A DNA stretch of 64,000 nucleotides from Betaproteobacteria bacterium (GTDB taxonomy: Bacteria; Pseudomonadota; Gammaproteobacteria; Burkholderiales; SG8-41): NCBI GenBank assembly GCA_021730905.1, contig JAKFYK010000021.1:1636-65635 (forward strand), read 5' to 3'. Below the pieces are notes generated by a model. The model was not told the DNA's origin. It saw only the letters and a list, made by a program, of their open reading frames with translations, and ran no database searches. The position numbers and the translations under genes are program-made. Positions 2,553-59,986 of the stretch are shown here, in pieces; the stretch's first letter is position 1, and each line of letters begins with the position of its first letter.

Positions 2553-2571
2553 TAAGTATATGTTTTTATTA
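2553..2571 (-). repeat. AT-rich recurrent motif, copy a (diverged)
   Basis: The minus strand reads TAATAAAAACATATACTTA, about 33 nt upstream of the scpA start (2520) in sense orientation. Confidence 0.6.
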
Positions 2572-2765
2572 AACATTTTTCTCTTTATCGCGCCCAGTCC
2601 AAGGCGCACGCGAGATTCTACCGCATTTCAAGCAAAAACCCACAAGCTATAGTGTTTACTGCCACCGTCGAACGCAATAGATTGATAAGGGGTTGATTCA
2701 CAACAGCTTTCGGTTAGGCGGCAGTGAGCCACATAAGTTCGCACCGAAAGTTGAGTCCCGACTGT

Positions 2766-2849
2766 CTGTCATTCCCGCGAAGGCGGGAATCCATAACGCC
2801 GGTGCCATTTGAGGCATTGCATGGATTCCCGCCTTCGCGGGAATGACAG
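2766..2849. repeat. REP/MITE-like element: perfect 29-bp inverted repeat with a 26-bp spacer
   Basis: 2766..2794 ctgtcattcccgcgaaggcgggaatccat is the exact reverse complement of 2821..2849 atggattcccgccttcgcgggaatgacag. Each arm holds the internal palindrome attcccgc-gaag-gcgggaat. The track ORF 2809..3066 (MDSRLRGNDR...) is just its translation. Confidence 0.85.
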
Positions 2850-2915
2850 GAAGGTTATTCTCCCGTGCGCTCAAAGGCGCCCTCGCAATCCCCCTGTGAG
2901 CCGCCGAGCAGCACA

Positions 2916-2998
2916 GCCAAGTCAGGGAATTCTGCGAGGACTGTTTGAGTCCTCGCGTGCTTTTTGCGAGGGCGAGTTCCGCAGCAGCCTGACTTGGC
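2916..2998. repeat. Nested palindromes (REP-like)
   Basis: The outer arms gccaagtcagg (2916..2926) and cctgacttggc (2988..2998) are complementary. The inner hairpin is gcgaggac (2934..2941) with gtcctcgc (2949..2956). Confidence 0.7.
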
Positions 2999-3050
2999 GA
3001 GCAGCGCAGGGAAGTCCGAAGGACCGGCGAGCCGGGGGCGGTTTTTCTTT

Positions 3051-3086
3051 GGTTACTTTCTTTTGAACGCTCAAAAGAAAGTAACC
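3051..3086. repeat. Perfect 14-bp stem hairpin (REP-like)
   Basis: ggttactttctttt (3051..3064), loop gaacgctc, aaaagaaagtaacc (3073..3086). Confidence 0.8.
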
Positions 3087-3254
3087 AGCCGCCGGGCTGC
3101 CCCCGGCGAAGTTGAAGTTATGTTTGCGTTGCTAAGTGCTTTCATTCAGCGCAATAGGATTGCACCCTATTGAAACACCTAGGTTCATTGACAGTCCTCC
3201 TCGGAAAGCTCAAAAATAAAAGTTGGGCCGCTTAACACCCAATCCGTTCTCAAC

Positions 3255-4457: not shown

Positions 4458-4461
4458 GATG

Positions 4462-5163
4462 TTATTTGGACAGCAGCTTCAAAAGTTTATAAAGATCGAG
4501 CACGGAAACATCCGCCAGCGCCGCGACCAACTGTATGGTAATCGTTACCAGCGGCCACAGCACCACGTCGAGCACCCTGGTAAACAGCAGCGCGAGGATA
4601 ATGAAAAAACCGTAAGGCTCGATGCGCGAAAACGCATACGCCTGGCGGTGCGGCAACAGGCTCACCATGATGCGTCCGCCGTCGAGCGGTGGTATCGGCA
4701 GCAGATTGAGCGCCATGAAAATAGCGTTCACCATCACGCCCGCCGCGCCCATCAGCGCCAGCGGCACTGAAAATTGACCCGCGACATCAGTGAACGCAAA
4801 CTTCACCACCAGCACCCAGAAAATCGCCATCACCAGATTGGCGCCCGGGCCCGCCGCCGCCACCCATAGCATGTCGCGCTTGGGATGGCGCAGATTGGCA
4901 AAGTTCACCGGCACCGGCTTGGCCCAGCCGAAAATGAATCCGCCGCCGAACAATTTTGACAACGCCAACAGCAGCAACGGCAGCGCGACCGTGCCGATGG
5001 GATCGATATGGCGTATCGGATTCAGGCTCACGCGTCCCTGCGAATACGCCGTGAGATCGCCGAAATACTTGGCCACGTAGCCATGCGCGGCCTCGTGCAG
5101 CGTGATCGCAAAAATCACCGGAATCGCATAAATCGCGATCACCTGAATCACGCTCAGTTCCAT
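4462..5163 (-). CDS. Site-2 protease family (peptidase M50) membrane metalloprotease
   Basis: 233-aa polytopic ORF with the HExxH motif (LHEAAHGYVA) in the first helix and LNLLPIPPLDGGRI downstream. Confidence 0.85.
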   Translation of the reverse strand: MELSVIQVIAIYAIPVIFAITLHEAAHGYVAKYFGDLTAYSQGRVSLNPIRHIDPIGTVALPLLLLALSKLFGGGFIFGWAKPVPVNFANLRHPKRDMLWVAAAGPGANLVMAIFWVLVVKFAFTDVAGQFSVPLALMGAAGVMVNAIFMALNLLPIPPLDGGRIMVSLLPHRQAYAFSRIEPYGFFIILALLFTRVLDVVLWPLVTITIQLVAALADVSVLDLYKLLKLLSK

Positions 5164-5195
5164 GCGCGCCTTGCTGTCACGAAAGCATAATTTTC

Positions 5196-5219
5196 GTAAC
5201 TATTTGTTTTTATTGAGTA
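5196..5219 (-). repeat. AT-rich recurrent motif, copy b
   Basis: The minus strand reads TACTCAATAAAAACAAATAGTTAC, about 33 nt upstream of the M50 protease start (5163) in sense orientation. Its first 20 nt are identical to copy c. Confidence 0.8.
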
Positions 5220-5292
5220 TTTTTTCATGCTGTTGACGGTTGCCCACGAGCAGGCAACACCGAGTGTAGCGCACCGGCGCAAACCGTAGCGA

Positions 5293-6847: not shown

Positions 6848-6855
6848 ATGGAAAT

Positions 6856-6880
6856 TACTCAATAAAAACAAATAGATAAG
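6856..6880 (+). repeat. AT-rich recurrent motif, copy c
   Basis: tactcaataaaaacaaatagataag lies in the divergent spacer between trpH and the DUF1223 gene. Confidence 0.8.
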
Positions 6881-6980
6881 AAAACAGGCTCGGCATCATA
6901 GCAGAATCGAGTGACAGTAGCATGGCGGCGTAAGGTTGCATCGCGGCATCCGACCAACGAAAAACCTCACGAGAACTCAA

Positions 6981-25972: not shown

Positions 25973-27550
25973 ATGACAACTCGCACCGTATCCCCCCGCG
26001 ATCTAAAAAACATGTTGCACGATGGCGGCGAACTCGCGCTGCTGGACGTGCGTGAAGACGGCCAGTTCGGCGAAGGACATTTGCTGTTCGCCACACCGCT
26101 GCCCTACAGCCGGCTGGAACTCGGCATCTCCGCGCTGGTGCCGCACAAAGGCGCGCGCATCGTGTTGTGCGACGATGGCGACGGCGTCTCGGAACGCGGG
26201 GTGAAGCGGCTACATGCAATCGGCTACACCGATGTGTCGGTGCTCGCCGGCGGCAACCCTTCATGGAAAACTGCGGGCTATACACTGTTCAAGGGCGTCA
26301 ACGTACCCAGCAAACTCTTCGGCGAACTGGTCGAGCACGTGTACGACACGCCGCGCATCACCGTCACCGAACTCGCGCAAATGAAACAGCGCAACGAGGA
26401 TTTCATCATCGTCGATGGCCGGCCCTACACCGAATATAACAAGATGAATATCCCCGGCGGCATTTGCTGTCCGAATGCGGAACTGCCCTATCGCATCCGC
26501 GACATCGTTAAAAATCCGAAAACCAAGATCATCGTCAACTGCGCTGGACGCACGCGCTCGATCATGGGCGCGCAGACGCTGCTCAATTTCGGCATTGAAA
26601 ATCCGGTGTATGCGCTGGAGAACGGCACACAGGGCTGGGTGCTCGCCGATTTTGAGCTCGAGCGCGGCGCAACGCGAAAATATCCTGACAAAATCGATGC
26701 GTCCGCTCTGCCTGGCCTGCAAGCCAGTGCAAAGAAATTGCTGACGCGATTTAACGTGAAGACGGTCACGGCTAAACAAGTCGAAGGTTGGCTCGCCGAG
26801 ACTAACCGTTCACTGTACCTGCTCGATGTGCGCACGCCGGAGGAGTTTCAGGCCGGCTCGCTGCCAGGTGCGGCGCATGCCCCCGGCGGGCAACTGGTAC
26901 AGGCCACCGATCAATGGGTGGGCGTGCGCAATGCGCGCATCGTGCTGGCGGACAGCGAAGGCGTACGCGCGCCGGTGGTCGCGGCGTGGCTGAAGCAACT
27001 CGGCTGCGATGTTTATGTGCTCGAAGGCGGCGTGAATTCCGGCCTGAAATTGCCGGCGCCGGCGAAAGCAACGCTGCCCGCGCTGCCGAAAATTTCCGCT
27101 GATGAATTGAAGCAGGTGCTCGCCGCCGGATCGTGCAGCGCTTTCTATCTCGGCCCCAGCATGAATTACCGCAAGCAGCACGTGCCGGGCAGCCGCTGGA
27201 GCATCCGCTCGCGTATCGTCAGGGACGCCGCTGACGCCAAGCACGTAGTGTTGATCACGCGCGACACCGATGTCGCGCAAGCTGCCGCCATCGATTTACG
27301 CGAAGCTGGAATCACCAACGTAAAACTGCTGGAAGGTGGACTGGCCACGTGGACCAGCGCGGGCCACGCACTGGAAGCCTCCCCGCAAATACCGTCGGAC
27401 GCCGAGTGCATCGACTATCTGTTTTTTGTGCATGATCGTCACGCCGGCAATCGCGGAGCAATGAAACAATATCTGGCGTGGGAGACCGGCCTCATCAAAC
27501 AGTTGGACGAGCAGGACAAGGCCAGCTTCAAGGTTGGCGCACCCGCATAA
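25973..27550 (+). CDS. Multi-rhodanese-domain sulfurtransferase-like protein
   Basis: 525 aa with about four rhodanese-like repeats (LLDVREDGQF, IVDGRPYTEYNKMNIPG, LLDVRTPEEFQAGSLPGA). One repeat has the catalytic-type loop VNCAGRTRS. Confidence 0.75.
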   Translation: MTTRTVSPRDLKNMLHDGGELALLDVREDGQFGEGHLLFATPLPYSRLELGISALVPHKGARIVLCDDGDGVSERGVKRLHAIGYTDVSVLAGGNPSWKTAGYTLFKGVNVPSKLFGELVEHVYDTPRITVTELAQMKQRNEDFIIVDGRPYTEYNKMNIPGGICCPNAELPYRIRDIVKNPKTKIIVNCAGRTRSIMGAQTLLNFGIENPVYALENGTQGWVLADFELERGATRKYPDKIDASALPGLQASAKKLLTRFNVKTVTAKQVEGWLAETNRSLYLLDVRTPEEFQAGSLPGAAHAPGGQLVQATDQWVGVRNARIVLADSEGVRAPVVAAWLKQLGCDVYVLEGGVNSGLKLPAPAKATLPALPKISADELKQVLAAGSCSAFYLGPSMNYRKQHVPGSRWSIRSRIVRDAADAKHVVLITRDTDVAQAAAIDLREAGITNVKLLEGGLATWTSAGHALEASPQIPSDAECIDYLFFVHDRHAGNRGAMKQYLAWETGLIKQLDEQDKASFKVGAPA

Positions 27551-27555
27551 AAATG

Positions 27556-27579
27556 TAAAAAAACAAATAGTTACATAAG
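27556..27579 (+). repeat. AT-rich recurrent motif, copy d
   Basis: taaaaaaacaaatagttacataag fills the rhodanese/oxidoreductase junction. Its core ends 16 nt before the ATG at 27589. Confidence 0.8.
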
Positions 27580-27588: not shown

Positions 27589-29898
27589 ATGCTCACCTCA
27601 ACGCACTGGGGCGTCTACGATGTCGCCGTCAAAGACGGCGTAATCACCGGCGTCACGCCGTTCGACCGCGATCCTGATCCATCACCGATTGGAAACGCAC
27701 TGCCCGGTGCGGTTCAAGGCCCGATGCGCGTGCGCCATCCGGCGATACGCAAGTGTTATCTTGAAGGGGGCGCTGGCGCGGCACGCCACAAACGCGGTGC
27801 GGAGCCGTTCGTCAATGTGAGCTGGAATGAAGCGCTCGATCTCGTCGCCGCGGAGTTGAAGCGCGTCACCACGCAATTCGGCAACAGCGCGATTTTTGCC
27901 GGTTCGTATGGCTGGTCGAGTGCGGGACGTTTTCATCATGCGCAAAGCCAGGTGCATCGTTTCATGAATGCAATCGGCGGTTACGTGGCGCATCTGGGCA
28001 CTTACAGCCTCGGTGCCGCGCGCACCCTGTTGCCGCGCATCCTGATGGATATGGATGTGATGCGCTCGCAGCAAACTGCATGGGTGTCGCTTGAGCAGCA
28101 CTGCGAGTTGTTGGTAGCGTTCGGCGGCGTTCCGTCGAAAAACGCTCAAGTCAATTCCGGCGGCATTAGCCAGCACGAAGTGCGTCCGATGCTGAAACGC
28201 CTCGCCGCAGCCGGCGTGAAGTTCGTCAACGTGTCACCTTTGCGCGAAGACATGGACGCCGCGCCCGGCGCCGAATGGGTACCCGTGCGCCCGAATACCG
28301 ACACCGCTTTCATGCTGGGCCTCGCGCACACGATTATTGCCGACGGCAAACACGACCAGGCGTTTCTTGCGCGTTATTGCACCGATTTCGAACCGTTCCG
28401 CAAATATGTGATGGGCGAAGCGGATGATGTAGCGAAATCAGCGGCATGGGCCGCTGAAATTTGTGATGTGCCGGCAGAAACCATCGTCACGCTGGCGCGC
28501 CGCATGGCCGCCAGCCGCACCATGATCAACGTCGCATGGGCGCTGCAGCGTGGCGATCACGGCGAACAGCCATACTGGATGGGCATCACGCTGGCGTGTT
28601 TACTCGGACAGATCGGCACGCCCGGTGGCGGCTTTGCGCTCGCGTACGGCCCCGTGGGTATCGAAGGCGCGAACGCGCGGCCGTTCTCTGGCCCAGTATT
28701 GCCGCAGGGACAGAATGGCGTGAAGACGCCGATCCCGGTCGCGCGCATCACCGACATGCTGGAAAATCCGGGTGGAGCCTATGATTTTGACGGCAAATTG
28801 TGCGCCTACCCAGACATTCGTTTGATCTATTGGGCCGGCGGCAATCCGTTTCATCATCATCAAGATTTGAATCGCCTGCTGCGCGCATGGCGCAGCAAAC
28901 CGGAGACGATCATCGTCAACGAGCAATACTGGAATCCCAATGCCAAGCTCGCCGATATCGTGCTGCCGGCCACCACCACGCTGGAGCGCGACGACATCGG
29001 CTCCAGCAGCCGCGACCGCCACATGATCGCGATGAAACGCGCGATCGATCCGGTGGCCGAAGCGCGCAACGACTACGATATCTTTACCGCCCTGTCCGAA
29101 CGAATGGGTGCAAAAGAAAAATTCACCGAGGGCCGTAACGAGCAGGCGTGGCTGCGTCACCTGTATGACGAATCCCGCGAGCGGGCGCGCAAGTTCGATC
29201 TGGAACTACCTTCGTTCGAAGCGTTCTGGTCCGAAGGATTCATTGAAATACCGGCACCGTTGGAGCCGCCAGTGATGATGCGCAGGTTTCGCGAGGATCC
29301 GGTGGCGAACAAGCTGCCCACGCCGTCGGGAAAAATAGAAATCACCTCGCCCACTATCGCCTCGTTCAACTATGACGATTGCTCCGGCCATCCTGCGTGG
29401 TTCGCGCCTGCCGAATGGCTGGGCAGCTCGCTGGCTGAAAAATATCCGCTGCACCTGATGTCGCACCAGCCATCCACGCGCCTGCACAGCCAGTACGATC
29501 ACGGCAGCGTCAGCCTCGCCGCCAAAATACAAGGGCGCGAAGCCATCACGCTGCATCCGCAGGATGCGGCGGCGCGCGGCATCAAGGCCGGCGACGTGGT
29601 GCGCGTTTTCAACGATCGCGGCGCGTGTCTCGCTGGTGTCAAAATCGACGATGGCGTGCGGCGCGGCGTCGCCGTGCTGCCCACCGGCGCATGGTTCGAT
29701 CCGCTCGACCCTGCCGAAAGCGGCTCGCTGGAGAAGCACGGCAACCCCAATGTGCTCACGCTCGATAAAGGCACATCGAAACTCACGCAGGGTTGCAGCG
29801 CACACACTGCGCTGGTTGAGGTTGAGTTATTCAAGGGTGCGTTACCGCGTGTAACGGCATTTGACCCGCCGCAGTTCGTTGCACGGGATAAAAAATAA
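27589..29898 (+). CDS. Molybdopterin (bis-MGD) S-/N-oxide reductase, BisC/TorZ-like, cytoplasmic
   Basis: 769 aa with no signal or Tat motif. THWGVYDV, VSWNEALDLVAAELKRV and IFAGSYGWSSAGRFHHAQSQVHRFMNAIGGY closely resemble my memory of E. coli BisC. Confidence 0.85.
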   Translation: MLTSTHWGVYDVAVKDGVITGVTPFDRDPDPSPIGNALPGAVQGPMRVRHPAIRKCYLEGGAGAARHKRGAEPFVNVSWNEALDLVAAELKRVTTQFGNSAIFAGSYGWSSAGRFHHAQSQVHRFMNAIGGYVAHLGTYSLGAARTLLPRILMDMDVMRSQQTAWVSLEQHCELLVAFGGVPSKNAQVNSGGISQHEVRPMLKRLAAAGVKFVNVSPLREDMDAAPGAEWVPVRPNTDTAFMLGLAHTIIADGKHDQAFLARYCTDFEPFRKYVMGEADDVAKSAAWAAEICDVPAETIVTLARRMAASRTMINVAWALQRGDHGEQPYWMGITLACLLGQIGTPGGGFALAYGPVGIEGANARPFSGPVLPQGQNGVKTPIPVARITDMLENPGGAYDFDGKLCAYPDIRLIYWAGGNPFHHHQDLNRLLRAWRSKPETIIVNEQYWNPNAKLADIVLPATTTLERDDIGSSSRDRHMIAMKRAIDPVAEARNDYDIFTALSERMGAKEKFTEGRNEQAWLRHLYDESRERARKFDLELPSFEAFWSEGFIEIPAPLEPPVMMRRFREDPVANKLPTPSGKIEITSPTIASFNYDDCSGHPAWFAPAEWLGSSLAEKYPLHLMSHQPSTRLHSQYDHGSVSLAAKIQGREAITLHPQDAAARGIKAGDVVRVFNDRGACLAGVKIDDGVRRGVAVLPTGAWFDPLDPAESGSLEKHGNPNVLTLDKGTSKLTQGCSAHTALVEVELFKGALPRVTAFDPPQFVARDKK

Positions 29899-29901
29899 CC
29901 A

Positions 29902-29924
29902 TTTAAAAATAAATATTTACATAC
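29902..29924 (+). repeat. AT-rich recurrent motif, copy e (diverged)
   Basis: tttaaaaataaatatttacatac lies at the oxidoreductase/hydrolase junction, 18 nt before the ATG at 29937. Confidence 0.7.
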
Positions 29925-29936
29925 TCGGAGGATTTG

Positions 29937-31001: not shown

Positions 31002-31981
31002 TGCGGTGTGCATGCTTTCTCGGCACGGTTGCGCTCACTGCGTCATTGGCGGCGGCAGCGCAAACACCCGGCGCCTGGAAGCCCGCACGCAATGTTGAAC
31101 TCGTCGCCGCTTCTTCGGCAGGCGGCGGCTCGGACAATCTCGCAAGGCTGGTACAGAAAATCCTGCAGGAACAAAAGATCATCGACGTGCCGATGACTGT
31201 GATCAACAAACCGGCGTCGGGCGGCGTGGTGGCATGGAGCGGCCTTAATCAAAATCCGCTGGACGGCCACCATCTTGCCATCAGCACCGCGAACCTGCTC
31301 ACCAACCACATCACCGGCCGCAGCACGCTGCACTACACCGATGTCACCGCCGTCGCGCAATTGTTCAGCGAGTCAGTGGGCATCGCGGTGCGCGCGGATT
31401 CTCCGCTGCGCAGCGGGCGCGAGCTCGCCGCGCTGTTGAAATCCGACGCCGGCAGCGTCAGTGCCGCGATCGGCACCAGCCTCGGCAATACCGGCCACAT
31501 CACACTGGCGATGGTCACGCAGACGGCGGGCGGTGACGCAAAGAAACTGAAATCGGTGGTGTTCCAGTCGGTGTCGCAAGGCGTCACCGCGCTGCTCGGC
31601 GGCCATGTCGATGTGATCACCACGCCGGCGTCGAATCTCGCTGCACATCACGTCGCCGGACGCATCCGCATCATCGGCCTCTCCACGCCGCAACGTTACG
31701 CAGGCGCGCTGGCGCAGGTGCCGACGTGGCGCGAACAAGGCATCAATGTCGTGGTCGATAATCTGCGCGGCATCATCGGCCCGAAAGCAATGACCGCGGC
31801 ACAGACTGCGTATTGGGAAGCAGCACTCGCACGCGTGGCACGCACCGACGAATGGAAAGCCCATCTGGAAAAAAATCAGTGGGCCGACAGTTTCGTCGGC
31901 GCCGAGGGCAGCCGCAAAGCGTTGGCGGATCAGCATGAGGAAATGCGCGTGGGGTTGGCCGCCTTGGGCATGATTAAATAG
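30998..31981 (+). CDS. Bug/TctC-family periplasmic solute-binding protein
   Basis: 327 aa with a signal peptide (LTASLAAAAQ). VELVAASSAGGGSDNLARL is present. The start (TTG 30998 or ATG 31001) overlaps the upstream stop. Confidence 0.85.
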   Translation: MMRCACFLGTVALTASLAAAAQTPGAWKPARNVELVAASSAGGGSDNLARLVQKILQEQKIIDVPMTVINKPASGGVVAWSGLNQNPLDGHHLAISTANLLTNHITGRSTLHYTDVTAVAQLFSESVGIAVRADSPLRSGRELAALLKSDAGSVSAAIGTSLGNTGHITLAMVTQTAGGDAKKLKSVVFQSVSQGVTALLGGHVDVITTPASNLAAHHVAGRIRIIGLSTPQRYAGALAQVPTWREQGINVVVDNLRGIIGPKAMTAAQTAYWEAALARVARTDEWKAHLEKNQWADSFVGAEGSRKALADQHEEMRVGLAALGMIK

Positions 31982-31984
31982 TTA

Positions 31985-32006
31985 TTTAAAAACAAATAGT
32001 TACATA
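31985..32006 (+). repeat. AT-rich recurrent motif, copy f
   Basis: tttaaaaacaaatagttacata fills the whole Bug/MaoC junction and runs into the ATG at 32006. Confidence 0.8.
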
Positions 32007-32827
32007 TGATCACTATGGCAAGCAATACTCCCTATCGGGTGCGCACGCACAATCCGTCCACGCAATCCGAAAACCGCATGCACAGCGACGACGTCGCGCG
32101 GCAATTCGGATTCAAGGGCGGCCTGGTGCCCGGCGTTACCGTATTCGCTCACATGACGCAACCGCTGGTTGCGCGTTACGGCGAAGCGTGGCTCGCGCGC
32201 GGCACGGCGGAGGTGAGTTTCGGCAAGCCGGCGTACGAAGGCGAATTGCTCAGCATACACACCACTGATGCCAGCAACGGATCGCACACGCTCACTTGCC
32301 TCAACGAGCAAGGTGTCGAGCTCGCGCGCATGAGCGCGGCTTTGTCCCCAGTACCCGCGACGCCGGACGCACGCGGTGACATTCCGTCCGCGCCACCGCA
32401 GCCGCAGGAACGCCCCACCGTGACCTGGGACCTGATGGAAATCAACAAACCTTTCCCCGCGCTCGCATGGACGCCCACGCTCGAAGAAAATCTCGAATGG
32501 TGCCGCGACTCACGCGATGAATTGCCGCTGTATCACGAAGGCGCCGCACCATTGCTGCACCCCGGCCTGATCCTGCGGCAGGCCAATTACGTGCTGCGCA
32601 AGCGTTTCATCATCCCCGCGTGGATACACGCCGCCAGCCGCATCACGTTTTACGAAGCAATGCGCGTAGGCCCTCATTACGAAGTGCGCGCGATCCCCGA
32701 GGAAAAGTGGAATCACAAAGGCCACGAATTCGTGCGCCTGTATGTCGCCGTGCGTCGTGAACAGCGCACCGTGGCGGAGATGCTGCATACGGCAATTTTT
32801 CGGCCGCGCGCGCGCAATACTATTTAA
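32006..32827 (+). CDS. MaoC-like (hot-dog fold) dehydratase family protein
   Basis: 273 aa. NRMHSDDVARQFGFKGGLVPGVTVFAHM is typical of MaoC-type hot-dog domains. The start could be 32006 or 32015. Confidence 0.65.
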   Translation: MITMASNTPYRVRTHNPSTQSENRMHSDDVARQFGFKGGLVPGVTVFAHMTQPLVARYGEAWLARGTAEVSFGKPAYEGELLSIHTTDASNGSHTLTCLNEQGVELARMSAALSPVPATPDARGDIPSAPPQPQERPTVTWDLMEINKPFPALAWTPTLEENLEWCRDSRDELPLYHEGAAPLLHPGLILRQANYVLRKRFIIPAWIHAASRITFYEAMRVGPHYEVRAIPEEKWNHKGHEFVRLYVAVRREQRTVAEMLHTAIFRPRARNTI

Positions 32828-39730: not shown

Positions 39731-39776
39731 GATTCCGCTGCGCTGGATTGCATACAAACACCTTCAAAAATAATCG

Positions 39777-39800
39777 TTTAAAAACAAATACTTAAGTAAG
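39777..39800 (+). repeat. AT-rich recurrent motif, copy g
   Basis: tttaaaaacaaatacttaagtaag. The core ends 16 nt before the TTG at 39810. Confidence 0.8.
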
Positions 39801-48890: not shown

Positions 48891-50543
48891 CTACGCGTCC
48901 TCACCGTAAAGCATGCGGCGATAGGTAATATTCACCACGTTGCGCGAGATGCGCACATCCAGCACCATCGGCCCATCGCCGGCCAGAAACTCGTCGATGC
49001 CGGTGGCGACTTCAGCCAGCGTACGTGCCACGCGGCCACGACAGCCAAAACCGCGTGCCACCGCGCCAAAATCCGGCGAGCGCACGCTGGCGAGATGAGC
49101 CTCGAAGCCCGAGGCCTTGAGCTTGTGATACTCGGCACCCAGACCTTCATCGTTCAGCACAATGAACAGCAGCTTGAGTCCGAGACGCGACGCGGTGTCG
49201 AGTTCCTGTATGTTCTGCATCGCGCCGCCGTCGCCTTCAATCAGCGCGAACGGTTTGCCGAGAGCCACTGCCATACCGATAGCGGTCGGCAAGGTCTGGC
49301 CGATGCAGCCAAAGCCGTTGACGAACTCATGCAGCACGCGCGGCTTCTTCATGATCATCACCGGAAACGCAAACGAATGGCCCACGCCGATGGCAATACC
49401 TACATCGGAAGGCAAGCGCTCATCGATCATGCGCGAGGCTTCGCGTGGATCAACAGTTCCCGCTTCGATTTCATATTCAGCGGCATCGCGGTCGGCGTCG
49501 AGCAATATTTTCTTTACAGTCGGAGTTCTAAAATTATCTTTAAAAACAAATACTTGAGATAACTCATTCTCAATGGCCTGCAGTGTCGCCAGCGCATCGC
49601 CCTGCACATAACAATCGGCGAGCCGGTCGTTGCCCATCAGCGCGGTGGGCTCGGTGTTGATGTGAATGATGCGCGCCTTGGGATACAGCAGGCCGCCTTC
49701 CAGCGTGTGCGGATTGAGGCTGGCGCCCACCGCGATCACGCAATCGGCTTCTTCAAACAGTTCCATCACCGCGCGCGTGGAAAACATGCCGGAAATGCCG
49801 GCGTGAAAATCACCCGATAGCACACCTTTGGCCACCAGCGAGGTCGCGGTCAGCGCGCCGATGCGTTCGGCAAGTTTTGCCGCCGCTTCCACCGCGCCTG
49901 ATTGCACCGCGCCATCGCCGACCACCACCACCGGTTTCTTGGCGGCAGCGATGATTTTCACCGCCTGCGCGAGTTGTTCCGCCGCGGGCTTGATGCGCTG
50001 CTGGCCTTTGAACAATGCGGATGACGGCACGTAGTCATCGCCGTCGCTGTCGATATTCGCATCCTGCACGTTCATCGGATACGCCAGCACCACCGGGCGT
50101 TTCTGCACCTTCGCTTCGTAGAACGCCTTGCGCACCGCGTCTTCGGCAAACGCGGGCGTCATCACCTCGATGTAGCCCGCGCCCGTCGCCGTGACGAGGC
50201 GATCCTGGTTCAGCGACTGGTTGATCCACTCGTTGTGAAAATGGGTGCGGCTGGTATACACCACCAGAGGCACGCGCGCCTTCACCGCCGCTACCAGTGA
50301 CGTCGTCATGCGTGTGATGCCCGGCCCGTGGGTGACGTTGCACACGCCGACGTTGCCGGTGGCACGCGCATAACCTTCGGCCATCGACAGTGCGGCACCC
50401 TCGTCGCGCACGTCGATCAGGCGCACACCGGGCAGTTTCGACATCGCGGCCGCCCACGACATGTTGCCGTCGCCCATCAGGCCGAATACTGTGCTGGCGC
50501 CTTCCTTGACGAAGGCGTTGGCTACGGCTTGGTAGACTTTCAT
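48891..50543 (-). CDS. Thiamine-diphosphate-dependent enzyme (acetolactate synthase large-subunit-like)
   Basis: 550 aa with three-domain ThDP architecture and the ThDP motif GDGGAMQNIQELDTASRLGLKLLFIVLNDEG. Confidence 0.85.
   Translation of the reverse strand: MKVYQAVANAFVKEGASTVFGLMGDGNMSWAAAMSKLPGVRLIDVRDEGAALSMAEGYARATGNVGVCNVTHGPGITRMTTSLVAAVKARVPLVVYTSRTHFHNEWINQSLNQDRLVTATGAGYIEVMTPAFAEDAVRKAFYEAKVQKRPVVLAYPMNVQDANIDSDGDDYVPSSALFKGQQRIKPAAEQLAQAVKIIAAAKKPVVVVGDGAVQSGAVEAAAKLAERIGALTATSLVAKGVLSGDFHAGISGMFSTRAVMELFEEADCVIAVGASLNPHTLEGGLLYPKARIIHINTEPTALMGNDRLADCYVQGDALATLQAIENELSQVFVFKDNFRTPTVKKILLDADRDAAEYEIEAGTVDPREASRMIDERLPSDVGIAIGVGHSFAFPVMIMKKPRVLHEFVNGFGCIGQTLPTAIGMAVALGKPFALIEGDGGAMQNIQELDTASRLGLKLLFIVLNDEGLGAEYHKLKASGFEAHLASVRSPDFGAVARGFGCRGRVARTLAEVATGIDEFLAGDGPMVLDVRISRNVVNITYRRMLYGEDA
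49539..49563 (+). repeat. AT-rich recurrent motif, copy h, inside the ThDP-enzyme coding sequence (antisense to the gene)
   Basis: tttaaaaacaaatacttgagataac sits in an AT-rich patch of about 70 nt (about 49503..49575) within an otherwise GC-rich gene. It is translated in-frame as ...NELSQVFVFKDNFRTPTVKKIL... Confidence 0.8.
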
Positions 50544-50558: not shown

Positions 50559-50619
50559 CCTTCAACAGGCTCAGGGCGAACGGAAATAGAAAAGCCGTTC
50601 GTCCTGAGCCTGTCGAAGG
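50559..50619. repeat. REP-like long hairpin between the amidohydrolase and ThDP-enzyme genes
   Basis: 50559..50583 ccttcaacaggctcagggcgaacgg pairs with 50595..50619 ccgttcgtcctgagcctgtcgaagg (25 bp, 2 mismatches, 11-nt loop). Confidence 0.8.
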
Positions 50620-50636
50620 ACGATAAAAGCCGCGGA

Positions 50637-51716: not shown

Positions 51717-51882
51717 GATGCTCTCCTGATTGAGTTGTTGTGGTTGCTTGGAGCTAACACCTTTTTGCCACAGATTGACACGGCTGCACCCGGATTGCTC
51801 CACTATGCATCCGCGCGCAACCGTAAAGTCCGTGTCAAAGAATGACTGGATGTGATCGCCAGATCGCAATTATCTCACGTGC

Positions 51883-52905: not shown

Positions 52906-53003
52906 TTGCAGACTCGCTTCTCGTCATTTGACGCGCATTTTTTCACAAGATAGCATCCCATGACGTCCTGATCAAACCATCTTCACCGTGGAAAATTCGC
53001 GCT

Positions 53004-54374: not shown

Positions 54375-54423
54375 CGCCACCATCTGTTGGTCACCCACCC
54401 GCAACCAGCAAGGAAGATTCCCC

Positions 54424-54738
54424 ATGGCCAAACTGAGCGACCTCGCATCGACCATTCGCAGCAAGAATGCCGGTGTGAATCAGATTACATTCGATATCAT
54501 TTTCCCAGACAAGGCCCGCTATCTTCGCGTGCTGGCAAGTCAGGTTATCACCCGGGACAGCATCGCGCGGCTTTTCAACATTCCTGCTTCGCGTATCTCG
54601 GATTTCGTGGCGTTCGATCTTGCCAACGCAATAAAATTTACCATTTATCGCCTTCGACCCAGCGGCAGCCCGGGAGACTGGGACATCCTCGGCTGCCAGC
54701 AATACGGCCCTTTGCTGGACGTCGAAGTGCCGGATTGA
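54424..54738 (+). CDS. DUF4387-like small protein (AtuA partner)
   Basis: 104 aa. MAKLSDLASTIRSKNAGVNQITFDIIFPDK. Confidence 0.65.
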   Translation: MAKLSDLASTIRSKNAGVNQITFDIIFPDKARYLRVLASQVITRDSIARLFNIPASRISDFVAFDLANAIKFTIYRLRPSGSPGDWDILGCQQYGPLLDVEVPD

Positions 54739-54763
54739 GGTGCACTCGCGTCGTTGGCGGGAA

Positions 54764-55747: not shown

Positions 55748-55768
55748 ATCTGTCTATATAAAAATATA

Positions 55769-55788
55769 TAATAAAAACAAATACTTAT
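55769..55788 (+). repeat. AT-rich recurrent motif, copy i
   Basis: taataaaaacaaatacttat lies in the 42-nt junction between two minus-strand genes and is antisense to them. Its flank aaaaatata matches copy j. Confidence 0.8.
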
Positions 55789-55789
55789 A

Positions 55790-56596
55790 TTAAATTGGAT
55801 GACGCTCTACGAATTCCAGCAACGCCTGCGCGCAGGCATCCGGATCCGTCGCCGCTGCGTGAAACGAATCGCCGGGCAGCACCACCAGTTCCGAGTGCGG
55901 TACTTTTTCCTGCCAAGCACGTGTTTCGGCCACCGACGCGAGTCCGCTTTCCTGCGTGGTAATCACCAGCATTGGACACCTGATCTTCTTCACATCCTCG
56001 CTGATGTCGGAAAAATTAATCGTGCCGGCAAATCCCGCCTCGGTGGAAACCGCCGTGCGCGCCATGTATTTGATCCACCACTCCACGCCTTCCTTTGGAA
56101 ACGCGCTGCCCAATCGCGCGCCCATGCTGCGTCGCGCCCAATGCTCGATGCCCTGCTCCTCCACTTCTTTCACGCGCGCGGCGCGCGTAGCCGCATCCGC
56201 GCGCACCGGCGGCGGCGAGCCGACCACTGTCAACGTGCGCACGCGATCCGCATGCCTTGCGGCAAACGCGCGACCAATCACGCCGCCAATTTTCGCGCCC
56301 GCCAGATGAAAGCGTGCTATGCCCAGATGATCCATCAGTGTCACGTAATCATTGATCACCACATCCAGCGTCCACGGAAAATCGCGCGCCATCGGCGTCG
56401 AGTCACCAAAGCCTCGCATGTCGGGCCGCACCACCCGGTAACGCCGCGCGAGATGCGGCACCCAGCCGTACCAGGCGCGATGACTTTCGTTATTGCCGTG
56501 GCACAACAATATCGTCTCGGACGCGCGCCATGAGTCGGTGAAATCATCGACGCAATAATGAATATCCACGCCCGGCGAAACCTGCAGGTTCGGCAT
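55790..56596 (-). CDS. Alpha/beta-hydrolase-fold protein with Lys in place of the nucleophile Ser
   Basis: 268 aa with typical fold strings (LLCHGNNES, RVVRPDMRGFGDS). The elbow reads HLAGAKIGG, with the AAA codon at 56293..56291. Confidence 0.75.
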   Translation of the reverse strand: MPNLQVSPGVDIHYCVDDFTDSWRASETILLCHGNNESHRAWYGWVPHLARRYRVVRPDMRGFGDSTPMARDFPWTLDVVINDYVTLMDHLGIARFHLAGAKIGGVIGRAFAARHADRVRTLTVVGSPPPVRADAATRAARVKEVEEQGIEHWARRSMGARLGSAFPKEGVEWWIKYMARTAVSTEAGFAGTINFSDISEDVKKIRCPMLVITTQESGLASVAETRAWQEKVPHSELVVLPGDSFHAAATDPDACAQALLEFVERHPI

Positions 56597-56612
56597 CTGG
56601 GAATTCCTTATT

Positions 56613-56643
56613 GTGGAGGCTTATGGTGGAGGCTTATGGTGGA
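56613..56643 (+). repeat. 13-bp direct tandem repeat (2.4 copies) in a divergent promoter region
   Basis: gtggaggcttatg occurs at 56613..56625 and 56626..56638, followed by gtgga. Confidence 0.85.
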
Positions 56644-56775
56644 TACTATGTACTGTGCATGGCATGTTACCGCAACAAGCGTCTCTACCGCGGCCAATTC
56701 CTGCTATGCTTTTCGGGAATCCGTAACACCCGCAACATATCCCCTACTCACTTTCGGAACATCCAGGGAGCACTC

Positions 56776-58416
56776 ATGCCAAAAATGACCGGTCACCGAT
56801 ACTTTGCCGAAGCGATGCGCGGCTACGGCGTGTCACATCTGTTTTATGTGAACACGATCATTCCGCCCGCGATGCTGGAAATCGACAAGATGGGCAGCGT
56901 AAAGCGCGTGGTCACGCACGGCGAAAAAGCGGCTGCCTACATGGCCGACGGTTATGCACGCGCATCGAACAAACCGGGCATTTGCCTGTGCCAAGACATC
57001 GGCAGCACCAATCTCGCCGCAGGCCTGCGCGATGCGCATATGGCGGGCTCGCCGGTGATTGCGATTTCCGGCGGTCAAAACGACATGCCGCGCTATCGCC
57101 ATGCCTATCAGAACGCGGAAGACCACAGCGCGTGGGATGGCGTTACCAAGGCCAACTACTCGGTCGATAGCGCGGCACGCTTTCCGGATTTGCTGCGGCA
57201 GGCATTTCGCGAATCGACTACCGGCGCGCCCGGTCCGGTACATCTGGAACTACGCGGCAACGCGGGGCAGATGCTCGACAAGGAAGCCGAATACGATCTC
57301 ACCTTCGAGCAGCGCTACACGCGTTATCCCGCGTTTCGCCCCACGGCTGAAGAAGCCGACATCAAGGCAGCGTTGAAGGAACTCAAGGAAGCGGCTAAGC
57401 CCATCATCGTGGTCGGCGGTGGCGCGGTGACATCCGGCGCGGGCGCAGAAGTCGTCGCACTTGCCGACAAGCTGCAAATCCCCATCGCCACCAGCCTGCA
57501 CGCGCGTGCACTGGTGCCCGACGACCACGCACTCGGTGTAGGCGTGCCCGGCAGCTACTCGCGCTGGTGCGCCAACAAAGCGGTGGCCGCGGCGGACCTG
57601 GTGTTCTTCATTGGTAGCCATACCGGCGGGCAGGTCACCAACGGCTGGTCGATTCCGAAAATCGGCACGCGCACGATACAGCTCGATATCGATCCGGGCG
57701 AACTCGGCCGCAATTACCCGAACGTAGTATCGATGTGCGGCGACGCCAAGGCCACGCTCACTCGTATGCTGGTTGAGGTGGGTACCGCCACGCCGCGCGC
57801 CGAGTGGCTGGAACAATGCCGCGGCTACGTCGCCGATTACTGGGCCGAGAGCGATCCGCTGCGTAATTCGGATGACGTGCCCATACGCCCGGAGCGCATG
57901 GCCAAGGAACTCGGCGACTGGCTGCCACCCGACGCAGTGCTGGTCGTCGATACCTTTCACGCGGCGCTGTGGACCGCGCAGATGTCACGCATGAAGGCCG
58001 GCCAGCGCTACATTCGCTGCGGCGGCTCGCTGGGCTGGGGTTTTCCCGGCACATTGGGTGTGAAAGCCGCACTGCCGAGTACGCCGGTGATCGGTTTCGC
58101 CGGAGACGCCGGCTTCTACTACCACATGGCCGAGATGGAAACCGCAGCGCGCTGCGGCCTCAACGCCGTGATGGTGGTCAACAACAATTATTCGGGTGGC
58201 GTGGCCGAATCGGCTGCGTTCCAGCGCGAAGTGAATTTCGCCAAGGTCGCCGACTCCATGGGCTGCGCGGGCTTTCGCGTGGAGAAAGCCGCAGACATAC
58301 GCGGCGCGCTGGATAAAGCACTCGCCTGCGGCAAGCCCGCGATTGTTGAAATTATCGGCAATGCGGCAATCCGCGCAAAACGCGGCTGGGCGCCGGCGGG
58401 GATTACCGGGGAGTAG
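56776..58416 (+). CDS. Thiamine-diphosphate-dependent enzyme (acetolactate synthase-like), paralog type 2
   Basis: The ATG is at 56776 (MPKMTGHRYFAEAMRGYGVSHLFYV). The ThDP motif is GDAGFYYHMAEMETAARCGLNAVMVVNNN. Confidence 0.85.
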   Translation: MPKMTGHRYFAEAMRGYGVSHLFYVNTIIPPAMLEIDKMGSVKRVVTHGEKAAAYMADGYARASNKPGICLCQDIGSTNLAAGLRDAHMAGSPVIAISGGQNDMPRYRHAYQNAEDHSAWDGVTKANYSVDSAARFPDLLRQAFRESTTGAPGPVHLELRGNAGQMLDKEAEYDLTFEQRYTRYPAFRPTAEEADIKAALKELKEAAKPIIVVGGGAVTSGAGAEVVALADKLQIPIATSLHARALVPDDHALGVGVPGSYSRWCANKAVAAADLVFFIGSHTGGQVTNGWSIPKIGTRTIQLDIDPGELGRNYPNVVSMCGDAKATLTRMLVEVGTATPRAEWLEQCRGYVADYWAESDPLRNSDDVPIRPERMAKELGDWLPPDAVLVVDTFHAALWTAQMSRMKAGQRYIRCGGSLGWGFPGTLGVKAALPSTPVIGFAGDAGFYYHMAEMETAARCGLNAVMVVNNNYSGGVAESAAFQREVNFAKVADSMGCAGFRVEKAADIRGALDKALACGKPAIVEIIGNAAIRAKRGWAPAGITGE

Positions 58417-58509
58417 CTGCCGCCAGTCAAACACAGGACGAGTATTCGCGAAGACACGCTCAAGTACGCCAGGCTGATCAAGGAAGTCGGCATCAAACCG
58501 GAGTAAGCC

Positions 58510-59499
58510 ATGCGCATGTGCGCTGGAAACGACAAAATTCATACGCTGGCGTGGACGCTGGCGGCGGTTGCCTGCGTGATGTCGCACGCGTACGCGCAAG
58601 ACTCCTACCCTGCCCGTCCAATAAGAATTGTCGTACCCAGCGGTGCCGGCGCGGGCAGCGACATACTCGCGCGGATGATCGCGCAACGTCTGACCGAGCG
58701 GCTGGGCAGGCAGGTGGTGGTGGAAAATCGTACCGGCGCCGGCAACATGATTGGCTACGAGTTTGCCGCCAAATCGGCGCCCGACGGTTACACGCTGGTT
58801 TCGGGTGTGAGCACGCTCGCCATCAATGCGGCAACCTACAAGAAAGTGCCGTACGACGCGCTGCGCGATTTCGAGCCGATTTCGCACACGACGAACGTGC
58901 CCAATCTTCTGGTGACGCACCCGGCGCTGCCGGTGAAAAATCTCAAGGAACTGATCGCGCTGGCGAAATCGCGTCCCGGCGAGCTGCTGTATGCCTCGGC
59001 GGGACACGGCACCAATCCACACCTGACGATAGAACTGCTCGCGACCATGGCGCAGGTGCGCTTTGTGCATGTGCCGTACAAAAGCGGCCCGCCCGGATTG
59101 ACCGATCTCATCGCAGGCCAGGTGCAATTCATGGCCACCGCCATGAATTACCTGCGGCCACATGCGCTCGGCGGACGCTTGCGCGCGCTCGGTGTCACCA
59201 CCGCAAAACGCACGATCTCCATGCCCGACATGCCCACGCTCGCCGAATCCGGCGTGCCCGGCTACGAATCGGTGCAGTGGTACAGCATGCTTGCGCCGGC
59301 GAAAACACCGCGCGCCATCATCGATCGGCTCAACAGGGAAATCGTCGCCTACCTGCGCTTGCCGGAAGTGATGGAAAAAATGACTGCCGACGGCAATGAA
59401 GTCGTCGCCAGCACGCCCGAGGAATTCGCGGCATTTCTGCGCGCGGAAACAGTGAAGTGGGCGAAGGTCGCCAGGGCCGCCGGGATCAAACCGGAATAA
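58510..59499 (+). CDS. Bug/TctC-family periplasmic solute-binding protein
   Basis: 329 aa with signal peptide plus [26 protein letters not shown]. Confidence 0.9.
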
Positions 59500-59504
59500 G
59501 CGCC

Positions 59505-59969
59505 ATGCATATCTGGGTCGACGCCGACGCCTGTCCCGTCGTCATCAAGGAAATCCTGTTTCGCGCGGCGGTGCGCGCCGAACTGCATCTCACACTGGTC
59601 GCCAACGCACCACTAGTTACACCGCGTTCGCCTTGGATAGGCACGGTGCAGGTGCCGCGCGGCTTCGACGTGGCGGACAACCACATCGTATCGGTTGTCG
59701 CGGCCGGCGACCTGGTGATTACCGCGGATATTCCGCTGGCTGCGGCCGTAGTGGAAAAGGACGCGCTGGCACTGAATCCGCGCGGCGAGCTGTATACCAA
59801 AACAAACGTGCGTGAGCTGCTCGACATGCGCAACTTCCTCGACACGCTGCGCGGCAGCGGTGTTGAAACCGGGGGGCCGCGCGCCTTCAACCACGCGGAT
59901 CGTCAGGCATTTGCCAATCAACTCGACCGTTTGCTGGCAAAACAATCTGCAAATCGGGGTATCACGTAA
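59505..59969 (+). CDS. YaiI/YqxD family protein (DUF188, UPF0178)
   Basis: [22 protein letters not shown] is the characteristic N-terminus. The ATG is at 59505. Confidence 0.8.
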
Positions 59970-59986
59970 GTATTTGTTTTTATTAT
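59967..59986 (-). repeat. AT-rich recurrent motif, copy j
   Basis: The minus strand reads ATAATAAAAACAAATACTTA. It overlaps the TAA stop of the YaiI-like gene and fills the 21-nt gap between convergent genes. Confidence 0.8.

Follow-up and report, generated by a model that had tools for sequence, protein, structure and literature searches.

A 36-bp AT-rich unit recurs ten times in the window, the 64,000-nucleotide betaproteobacterial stretch studied here, and probably (with a probability of about 0.6) represents a stand-alone, selected family of candidate high-affinity bending sites of the IHF type. Its behaviour is that of a chromosome-architecture site and not that of a promoter, a terminator or a mobile element. 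Each copy would be bound by the heterodimeric DNA-bending protein IHF or by a close relative from the IHF/HU family. We infer both IHF as the reader and the purpose of the bends from the sequence patterns described below.

Matches to TAAAAACAAATASTTA (core pattern TAAAAACAAATAsTTA, threshold <=2 mismatches) number 10 in the window compared to 0.01 ± 0.10 in shuffles. These are the ten copies of the original prediction, all of which are confirmed in position and strand, as is their excess over shuffled controls. In scans with a 36-nt position weight matrix (PWM) built from the ten copies, these score 45-57 bits and the next-best site in the window scores 18 bits. This gap indicates a discrete motif family instead of a continuum of AT-rich DNA. 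The window contains 12 strongly AT-rich islands (>=24 A/T in 30 nt), of which ten are the motif and one is a look-alike at 63146-63175. The motif is thus no by-product of AT-rich intergenic DNA; it makes up essentially all such DNA here.

The unit was first described as 20-35 nt long, but it extends to about 36 bp, beginning with an A/T tract some 11 nt upstream of the core and ending with a YRWWWW tail. Its elements are ordered as the A/T tract, 3 nt, an AA or TT step, and then TAA-AAWCAR-N4-TTR. No dyad symmetry, shared stem or shared fold is apparent when 61-nt windows around the copies are folded as DNA (z-scores -1.6 to +0.7), and the motif has no direct-repeat symmetry, no terminal inverted repeats and no target duplication. 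Rfam yields no match for the motif, a terminator scan calls no copy terminator-like, and a promoter scan calls none of copies d-g a sigma-70 promoter. The original reasoning that the motif lacks dyad symmetry and is neither a terminator, a REP nor a sigma-70 promoter therefore stands. The motif occurs about once per 6 kb in this GC-rich chromosome. Copies are irregularly spaced along the window, from 1.7 to 20.7 kb apart, and this spacing lends no support to a periodic architectural role.

Most copies occupy short gaps between genes. Copy a (2547..2582, minus strand; core TAAAAACATATACTTA at 2553-2568) lies in the scpA-trpS gap, 32 nt upstream of scpA. Copy b (5191..5226, minus strand; exact core at 5197-5212) separates a yrdC/Sua5-like gene from an M50-peptidase-like gene and is kept at the orthologous site in relative L035. 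The same relative keeps copy c (6849..6884, plus strand; core 6863-6878), which is found in the divergent gap between a PHP-domain gene (start ~6847, minus strand) and a DUF1223 gene, and which is also about 15 nt from the start of the former. Copy d (27544..27579, plus strand; core 27558-27573) occupies the 38-nt gap between a rhodanese gene and a molybdopterin oxidoreductase gene. Copy e (29890..29925, plus strand), whose core TAAAAATAAATATTTA at 29904-29919 carries 2 mismatches, lies in the 35-nt gap 3' of the molybdopterin oxidoreductase gene, with an A-tract that overlaps the stop codon.

Copy f (31973..32008, plus strand; exact core at 31987-32002) takes up the 24-nt gap that separates a TctC-family gene from a 273-aa ORF. 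Copy g (39765..39800, plus strand; exact core at 39779-39794) is located 15 nt upstream of an SBP_bac_11 gene, and its orthologous site is kept in L268 and L271. Copy h (49527..49562, plus strand; core 49541-49556, ending in TTG) resides inside, and antisense to, the TPP-enzyme ORF at 48891-50543 on the minus strand. Copy i (55758..55793, plus strand; exact core at 55772-55787) is antisense to the hydrolase and TctC genes, both on the minus strand, whose 42-nt gap it occupies. Copy j (59961..59996, minus strand; exact core at 59967-59982) is found in a 21-nt gap between convergent genes, where its terminal TTA forms the stop codon (TAA) of the gene on the plus strand. At variable positions, neighbouring copies resemble each other slightly more than distant ones do (0.51 versus 0.47 identity, p=0.002), which may be a same-genome effect and lends slight support to the earlier suggestion that subsets of copies share longer identity.

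Three weaker look-alikes had also been proposed, and they differ in status. The one at 60903-60924 is a real decayed copy, TTAAAACGGTTACTCA, spanning 60890..60925 on the plus strand at a TauD/TauD junction and carrying 5 mismatches that include contact positions. At the orthologous junction, L080 keeps a perfect copy and both L268 and L271 keep one with 1 mismatch, and the length is unchanged. Membership of the second (63146-63167) is uncertain; this look-alike, AAAATACAGATACTTA (63141..63176, minus strand), recurs without change in L268 and there overlaps the 5' end of a gene of the MR_MLE family. The third, at 13801-13816, is rejected as a member and has neither a TTR element nor an A-tract.

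The canonical IHF site spans 34 bp. It combines a WATCAA/WATCAR element, followed 4 bp downstream by TTR, with a pair of ApA steps spaced 9 bp apart and, in its 5' half, an A-tract of 4-6 bp (PMC1874591; bioRxiv 10.1101/382655). All four published elements are present in the motif at the right spacings. Core positions 4-9 read AAACAA and match WATCAR at 5/6 positions. Conservation reaches 99-100% at C7 and A8, position 9 holds A or G in 96% of copies, and position 6 holds A in 92%, its only alternative being a T (8% of copies) that gives ATCAA. E. coli in-vivo IHF logos likewise show W at the T position of WATCAR, as WAWCAACnnnTT (PMC8407004). The TTR element follows 4 bp downstream of WATCAR, with T14 in 97% and T15 in 99% of copies and a position 16 that is A (95%) or G (5%) and never a pyrimidine. 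At the A-tract, A reaches 75-94% at positions -11 to -9, G and C are excluded between -11 and -6, and the A-run mostly ends at -8 ± 1 on its 3' side. The whole motif is AT-rich from -13 to +23.

In 94/152 copies the dinucleotide located 9 bp upstream of A8A9 is AA, in 46/152 it is TT and in 12/152 something else. This step tolerates AA and TT but neither AT nor TA, which points to a putative readout of strand-symmetric shape or deformability instead of bases. Among 55 imperfect copies, the contact positions A5, C7, A8, T14 and T15 have a mean of 2.0 mismatches compared to 10.3 at spacer positions 10-12 (binomial p=9e-7). Where such copies vary at position 16 they change only to G (TTR), at position 9 mostly to G (WATCAR), and at position 6 only to T. 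This spectrum fits the IHF consensus. Mutation bias combined with a simple preference for AT-richness would also produce part of it (A to T, A to G). The IHF lead of the original prediction, which had noted a 12/13 match to the consensus and a preceding A-tract, gains considerable strength from the AA/TT step positioned exactly 9 bp upstream of the CAA step and from the sparing of presumptive contact positions.

The whole unit reads 5'-(A/T tract, 4-6 bp)-N3-(AA or TT)-TAA-AAWCAR-NNNN-TTR-YRWWWW-3'. In the bound state, prolines on the two beta-arms of the protein would intercalate at the paired ApA steps, 9 bp from each other. The flanks would be clamped by WAWCAR, TTR and the A-tract, and the result would be a U-turn of about 160 degrees. 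Some features weigh against IHF as the reader. The motif holds more information than IHF needs, with spacer positions 10-12 (ATA) and positions 1-3 (TAA) 90-100% conserved, and the canonical T of WATCAR is an A in 92% of copies. IHF is, to our knowledge, universal in Proteobacteria, yet the motif family is confined to one clade, which points to something lineage-specific that IHF binding does not account for. Searches by tblastn with approximate sequences of E. coli IhfA and IhfB as queries gave no clade match in the window and about 600 kb of clade loci, a sample far too small for any conclusion.

The original prediction treated the motif as a mark of gene junctions, in sense orientation upstream of start codons. 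The distances it gave to start codons are about right, but the arrangement does not generalise. Among 63 classified copies from the window and its relatives, those at co-directional junctions include 23 sense and 21 antisense copies, 10 copies (16%) are in divergent gaps, and 9 (14%) are between convergent genes. This mix is close to the window's own mix of junction types. Copies lie nearer to stop codons than to start codons (median distance on the 5' side, 10 nt), and in some cases they contribute a stop codon or codons for the N-terminus. The motif shows no tie to start codons. Some copies, h among them, are intragenic. At the junction of copy i, the motif is antisense in L271 and sense in L266 and L268. 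The lack of orientation or junction bias, together with the presence of both orientations at one junction, fits a structural DNA site.

Comparison of orthologous junctions, proposed with the original prediction, shows copies being kept in relatives while their surroundings diverge. Cores have 15/16 identity in each of three orthologous pairs, although the coding DNA is about 80% identical and the flanks have diverged (P=0.008). Copy h, which encodes amino acids 328-340 through 13 consecutive A/T-ending codons in a gene with a GC3 of 0.73, is kept in four relatives (L266, L267, L268 and L271). The retention of cores beside diverging flanks and the maintenance of copy h through A/T-ending codons demonstrate purifying selection on the motif at the DNA level. 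Filled and decayed orthologous sites are equal in length and differ by point substitutions without indels. Copy j is kept in L080 and L266, decayed in L271 and absent in L268. Copies appear and decay by point substitution in place.

The motif is a hallmark of an uncultured Burkholderiales clade of about 30 species-level MAGs; genomes ranging over 56-69% GC share one and the same consensus. About 40 kb of DNA from sister lineages with equal GC content contains neither a copy nor an AT island, and the motif is not enriched in viral contigs. At the equivalent junctions of a 91-92% identical gene, two other lineages (L116 and L119) carry a REP-like hairpin.

The H' site of lambda attP was used for the IHF-DNA co-crystal. 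It is a canonical four-element IHF site (elements: PMC1874591; 10.1101/382655). Over about 34-36 bp, the motif repeats these four elements in unchanged order and in almost the same register. Compared base by base with what we take to be the H' 35-mer, it has AAACAA where H' has WATCAA, and its A-run is 1-2 bp further from the core. Unlike H', a single site with a defined role in recombination, the motif has hundreds of near-identical sites per genome.

REPs are mobilised by RAYT transposases. Like REP and REPIN sequences, the motif is a short extragenic repeat that fills intergenic gaps, but REPs are G+C-rich imperfect palindromes and the motif is AT-rich and has no dyad symmetry. According to a passage in PMC2817692 (citing Boccard & Prentki 1993), the RIB/RIP (BIME-1) elements of E. 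coli are stereotyped extragenic IHF sites that occur genome-wide, often by the 3' ends of genes. The motif would likewise be a stereotyped, genome-wide family of IHF-type sites. However, RIB/RIP elements hold their IHF site between a pair of inverted REP palindromes, and they are reported from the 3' ends of transcription units. The motif has no flanking palindromes, for which gaps of 21-42 nt leave no room, and its copies, although often close to stop codons, occur at all junction types and within some genes. Correia (NEMIS) elements of Neisseria are numerous, mostly intergenic betaproteobacterial repeats with a functional IHF site (PMC2229807), and the motif, with its putative IHF-type site, shares this description. 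It differs in having neither the terminal inverted repeats nor the filled/empty polymorphism of these 105-155-bp MITEs, and in evolving by substitution in place.

Two explanations fare poorly. A strand-specific expression signal upstream of starts (a promoter or UP element, a leaderless-mRNA promoter, an AU-rich translation enhancer or an RNA processing site) is suggested by the seven of ten window copies that lie in sense orientation 3-33 nt from a start codon (about 60-100 nt for copy c), and the corresponding RNA would be A-rich and unstructured. This explanation is hardly tenable given the near-equal sense and antisense counts, the copies between convergent genes, the junction with both orientations, the antisense placement of copy h inside an ORF, and the absence of sigma-70 or terminator calls, Rfam matches and structure. 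A miniature mobile repeat (MITE- or REP-like) inserting between genes, or a solo transposon end, might account for the many near-identical intergenic copies, the slightly greater likeness of neighbours and the codons that copies sometimes contribute. This idea is largely refuted and very improbable. The motif has no terminal inverted repeats, hairpin or target duplication, and filled and decayed sites differ by substitutions and not by an indel. In comparison with homologues, among them solved AHAS structures, copy h brings in no extra residues. The identical consensus across the range of GC contents and the lack of enrichment in viral contigs also speak against mobility.

Explanations that address the clade restriction deserve more weight. 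Another lineage-specific DNA-binding protein outside IHF/HU, for example a nucleoid-associated or partition-type protein, may have been acquired by the clade and read the extended 16-mer. The confinement of the family to one clade, the near-invariance of positions 1-3 and 10-12 beyond the IHF consensus, and the A that replaces the canonical T of WATCAR all favour such a reader. It is rather unlikely, in view of all four IHF elements being in register, the absence of the dyad or direct-repeat symmetry used by most specific binders, and the fact that no candidate protein was found. The motif could instead be a genome signature of the DNA-uptake type, preferred by a competence receptor, with copies that arise in place and spread by biased uptake and recombination. 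USS of Pasteurellaceae and DUS of Neisseriaceae are lineage-specific, orientation-neutral sequences with hundreds to thousands of copies that arise in place, are tolerated in some coding positions, and are conserved across related species. The motif resembles them in being one short, sharply defined sequence over-represented in a single lineage, with no orientation or junction bias, with origin and decay in place without indels, and with copies in permissive coding positions under synonymous constraint. Its length of about 30-36 bp with AT-rich phased flanks also recalls what we take to be the form of the Haemophilus USS. IHF binding explains both the excess information content and the restriction to one clade less well than biased uptake would, and the resemblance to an IHF site would then reflect a shared need for sharply bendable DNA or be a coincidence. 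This explanation is nevertheless unlikely. At about 1 per 6 kb the motif is several-fold sparser than known uptake sequences, which occur about once per kb, contain G+C and do not resemble IHF sites. No inverted-pair arrangement of copies is seen, we know of no uptake specificity in Burkholderiales, and coincidence would have to account both for a step that alternates between AA and TT exactly 9 bp from CAA and for the sparing of exactly the IHF contact positions.

It is quite improbable that the motif is a third, independently evolved family of DNA-uptake-type or other self-propagating drive sequences in an uncultured Burkholderiales clade, and not primarily a selected protein-binding site. 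The preferred sequence would in that case happen, or need, to be IHF-like and hyper-bendable. If true, such a drive would account for the confinement to one clade, for the surplus of information and for the turnover in place. If the copies are instead IHF-type bending sites, as is favoured here, then these sites, about 1 per 6 kb, almost always in short intergenic gaps and in either orientation, would fix the points at which the nucleoid bends sharply. According to a passage in PMC9519438, simulations indicate that plectonemes can be pinned, and DNA partitioned into topological domains, by IHF. Bends at the motif may, for example, pin plectonemes or separate topological domains between transcription units, and would not control particular genes.

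A search of the window with TAAAAACAAATASTTA, allowing up to two mismatches, returns ten matches, compared with 0.01 ± 0.10 in shuffled sequence. These are the ten copies of the original prediction (a to j, from left to right), all recovered in place and on the expected strand. Alignment of the copies together with their flanks reveals that the conserved unit is larger than the core first proposed, TAAAAACAAATAsTTA, which is real but too short, with conservation running into the flanks. With a 36-nt weight matrix the ten copies reach 45-57 bits and the best remaining site in the window reaches 18 bits, and the family is therefore discrete. G+C content is about 60% along the whole window, where 12 islands carry at least 24 A/T per 30 nt. 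Because ten of these islands are motif copies, the motif is not a by-product of AT-rich intergenic DNA but constitutes nearly all such DNA present. One other island is a look-alike at 63146-63175 (AAAATACAGATACTTA), which is identical in the related locus L268 (3136-3177), at the start of an MR_MLE-family gene (MKIQILKPY…). Since it overlaps a gene start there, its conservation may reflect coding rather than motif function.

The window is a segment of bacterial chromosome. Its housekeeping genes are scpB, scpA, trpS, a site-2-protease-like gene, a yrdC-like gene and a PHP-domain gene, and it also carries many TctC/Bug solute-binding genes, TauD dioxygenases, TPP enzymes and one molybdopterin oxidoreductase. 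Exact matches to its proteins come only from short Logan contigs of SRR10388245 and SRR10388248, and the closest named relatives are 'Burkholderiales/Betaproteobacteria bacterium' MAGs. The scpA-trpS gap (2521-3254) contains a perfect 29-nt inverted repeat (2766-2849 and 3050-3087) with ATTCCCGCGAAGGCGGGAAT in each arm, which fits the Neisseria dRS3 pattern, ATTCCC-N8-GGGAAT. A second, separate perfect 17-nt hairpin lies near it, and the only two window matches to textbook WATCAR-N4-TTR, at 2675-2698(-), are beside these repeats. Short ORFs run through copy a (2521-2582; MFNKNIYLSSLFVGESRAV, then a stop), with an ATGA overlap with the scpA start codon, and through copy b (5140-5231; 24 codons), overlapping the start of the M50-like gene. 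They may exist by chance or may encode translationally coupled leader peptides. At 9704-12688, an ORF of 994 aa with a DUF6600 domain occupies a region where AT skew is unusually high (0.27); its coding strand is uncertain, because a GC3-based caller favoured overlapping minus-strand ORFs.

Positions relative to genes were classified for 63 copies, on loci annotated by this crude GC3-based gene caller. Co-directional junctions hold 23 sense and 21 antisense copies, divergent junctions 10 and convergent junctions 9. Among the junctions in the window, 64% are co-directional, 18% divergent and 18% convergent, a mix that the copies match, so the motif has no preference for orientation or junction type. 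The sense placement upstream of start codons that had been proposed from the window was thus a small-sample impression. Stop codons are nearer to the copies, at a median of 10 nt (5' side) and 22 nt (3' side), than start codons, at 38-50 nt. The stop codon is often supplied by the motif itself, either as the TAA of the A-tract or as the terminal TTA read as TAA on the opposite strand; the latter is the case for copy j, which lies in a convergent gap, and for a copy in the related locus L072.

Some copies are coding. Copy h lies antisense within a TPP-enzyme gene. TctC-family genes in relatives start ATG TTT AAA AAC AAA TAC TTA (MFKNKYL), and other genes read the motif in a second frame (…SIKTNSY…), inside signal-peptide n-regions. 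Such motif-encoded N-termini, in both frames, belong to secreted or TctC-family proteins (L268:7751-7771, and loci L003, L114, L078, L066, L080, L107 and L033 from relatives). They precede the hydrophobic signal-peptide core, and gene callers accept the starts.

Random orientation, the use of all junction types and these coding copies mean that the general function cannot be that of a promoter, terminator, translation enhancer or RNA element. Between the hydrolase and TctC genes the motif is even flipped, being antisense in the window and the related locus L271 and sense in L266 and L268. Promoter and terminator scans called no copy promoter-like or terminator-like, which bears out the earlier judgement that the copies are neither terminators nor sigma-70 promoters; the reported lack of dyad symmetry also held, and the copies share no common fold (folding z -1.6 to +0.7). 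Window scans gave no Rfam matches and no tRNA genes. A coding motif (MFKNKYL or SIKTNSY) fails as the primary explanation, as the DNA is used in two frames, on both strands and in non-coding gaps. An integron-like cassette boundary was considered because copies d, e and f are co-oriented and homologues 91-92% identical to the gene flanked by d and e occur elsewhere; it was rejected because overall orientation relative to genes is random. Nearby TauD, rhodanese and SBP genes raised the idea of a sulfur-regulon operator. The orientation data argue against such an operator, as do the copies beside housekeeping genes (scpA, trpS and PHP).

Orthologous junctions in relatives record how copies change. 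Where relatives overlap several window junctions, coding DNA is about 80% identical in nucleotide sequence. Copies b and c are kept in L035 and copy j in L080, with cores each matching at 15 of 16 positions while the surrounding intergenic DNA diverges; 45 of 48 core matches at 80% identity has a probability of 0.008. Copy g is likewise present in L268 and L271, and copy j is decayed in L271 and absent in L268. At the TauD/TauD junction the window has a 5-mismatch relic, L080 a perfect copy, L268 and L271 1-mismatch copies and L266 none, with no element-sized length difference among relatives. The L072 copy stands at a gene end, where it supplies a new stop codon, and the window and L104 have none there. 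Copy h is conserved at the DNA level in four relatives. All 13 of its successive codons, TTA and AGA among them, end in A or T, in a gene with a GC3 of 0.73 (chance about 2e-5 per gene), and at this site the clade has SQVFVFKEN and more distant homologues AQxGVSxEG. Copies appear, persist and decay by substitution in place, and what maintains them is selection, or else a drive, that acts directly on the DNA. Substitution in place without indels argues against transposition, and mobile insertion was rejected because copy h inserts no extra residues when compared with homologues, among them solved AHAS structures, and filled and decayed sites are equal in length.

The cluster at 48891-61963, compared with L266, L268 and L271, is conserved yet rearranging. 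Its genes, which may form a degradation pathway, are two TauD genes and those for an alpha/beta hydrolase, TctC, an amidohydrolase and one or two paralogous TPP enzymes. The window differs from L266 and L268 in the N-terminus of the TctC protein encoded beside the hydrolase. In another related locus (L025:3127-3142 (+) and the same place on the minus strand), two half-motifs are fused head-to-head (TAAGTATTTGTTTTAAAACAATTATTTA), with the motif readable on both strands.

A scan of one genome per GTDB species with AAAT-N3-10-WTAAAAACAAATASTTA matched at least 114 stretches; taxonomic range and per-genome counts are lower bounds. Among the matches listed, about 90 of 114 are in contigs of 56-69% G+C, with at least roughly 30 Betaproteobacteria/Burkholderiales MAGs represented, many by several matches. 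The motif in those MAG contigs is in every case an AT island with GC-rich flanks; AT-rich genomes account for the other listed matches, each occurring singly and by chance. The GC-rich loci from the matches listed, 591 kb in all, hold 92, 19, 19 and 15 cores with 0, 1, 2 and 3 mismatches, versus 0, 0.2, 0 and 3.8 in block-shuffled controls. Loci fetched by gene rather than by motif give an unbiased density. L266 holds 3 copies in 12 kb, and L268 and L271 each hold 4 in 22 kb; with the window, the mean is about one per 5.7 kb, or several hundred per genome by extrapolation.

Loci L269 (GCA_016199545.1) and L270, whose TPP enzyme is 68-73% identical, have no copy and no AT island in 40 kb, at 63-64% G+C and with TctC genes equally abundant. 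The motif is also missing from about 17 GC-rich metagenome contigs carrying molybdopterin oxidoreductase. Association with phages was rejected, since 59 of 67 viral matches are in contigs below 45% GC and only 2 at 52% GC or more, as for chance matches in AT-rich viruses. The lack of the motif in L269, L270 and the metagenome and viral contigs marks the family as a signature of one uncultured clade. The metagenome search with molybdopterin oxidoreductase returned motif-free contexts only and no syntenic relatives; the 91-92% identical homologues are on contigs with other neighbours and no AT motif. Contigs L116 (2490-2580 and 4885-4935) and L119 (upstream of 5888) have a REP-like hairpin, GGGGACAGACCACTAAGCC…GGCTTAGTGGTCTGTCCCC, at both gene junctions, where the window has copies d and e. 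This suggests that the gene has moved horizontally and that its junctions are filled differently from lineage to lineage.

The unit was delimited from base frequencies in 152 copies. Positions -11 to -6 form an A/T tract from which G and C are essentially excluded; three less-constrained bases follow, and positions -2 and -1 are AA in 62% of copies, TT in 30% and other dinucleotides in 8%. The core is T1 A2 A3 A4 A5 A6 C7 A8 A9 A10 T11 A12 S13 T14 T15 A16, and a Y-R-WWWW tail extends to about +23. Canonical sites for the DNA-bending protein IHF span 34 bp, with WATCAA or WATCAR near the centre, TTR four bp downstream, proline intercalation at two steps nine bp apart that are mostly AA, and a tract of four to six A in the 5' half (PMC1874591; bioRxiv 10.1101/382655). 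All four elements are in register in the motif: AAACAA at 4-9, TTA at 14-16, ApA steps at 8-9 and exactly nine bp upstream, and the A-tract beyond. Mismatches in 55 imperfect copies average 2.0 at contact positions A5, C7, A8, T14 and T15, versus 10.3 at spacer positions 10-12 (p=9e-7). G is the only substitute at position 16 and the main one at position 9, and T is the only one at position 6, where it gives textbook ATCAA; in vivo footprint logos from E. coli (WAWCAACnnnTT and WWTCARSnnnTTA; PMC8407004) place W at position 6 within the IHF range. This register and the sparing of contact positions strengthen the likeness to IHF sites seen in the original prediction. The upstream step accepts AA or TT and not AT or TA, which is expected of a strand-symmetric readout of deformability and hard to reconcile with base-specific recognition.

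From the sequence we predict, with a probability of roughly 60%, that the copies are high-affinity bending sites of the IHF type, forming a family that stands alone. Bound by the IHF heterodimer, or by a close relative in the IHF/HU family, each site would be kinked at its two ApA steps and clamped along the A-tract and TTR arms into a U-turn, and sites between genes would fix sharp bends in the nucleoid. Published simulations (PMC9519438) indicate that IHF can pin plectonemes and separate topological domains. Either would be a plausible role between transcription units of a compact GC-rich genome without other bendable AT-rich DNA.

Three properties that IHF does not explain keep two rivals alive. 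The information in the motif is well above what IHF needs, with TAA (1-3) and ATA (10-12) nearly invariant, position 6 favours A over the canonical T, and the family is restricted to one clade; IHF is, to our knowledge, universal in Proteobacteria. Binding by a lineage-specific reader other than IHF would account for all three, and we regard it as unlikely. Still more doubtful is an uptake-signal-like drive sequence, which would explain the clade restriction, the sharp consensus and the turnover in place but would make the register-perfect IHF match a coincidence.

Read as IHF-type sites, the copies have precedents. Their anatomy is like that of the lambda H' site. The E. coli RIB/RIP (BIME-1) IHF repeats (PMC2817692) likewise form a genome-wide stereotyped family, but the motif does not have their flanking REP palindromes. 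Neisseria Correia elements with an IHF site (PMC2229807) are also stereotyped; unlike them, the motif has no terminal inverted repeats and no filled/empty indels. No description of the motif was found in the searchable literature, including by literal-sequence search. As a rule IHF sites are degenerate and seldom of the highest affinity, and the stereotyped families known so far are carried by mobile palindromic elements. What is new here is a near-perfect four-element site that stands alone, is virtually the sole AT-rich DNA in a 60% GC genome, and is kept by selection at about one per 6 kb, even across stop codons and inside an enzyme gene. At least roughly 30 uncultured species share it, and their sister lineages lack it.

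The family would be useful as a taxonomic marker for binning, and gene callers should be used with caution in this clade, since stop codons and codons close to the start can come from the motif. Should IHF be the reader, the clade would be a natural experiment in which nucleoid bending points are hard-wired and legible from sequence alone, and the role of specific IHF sites in chromosome architecture would be testable by comparative genomics and ChIP.
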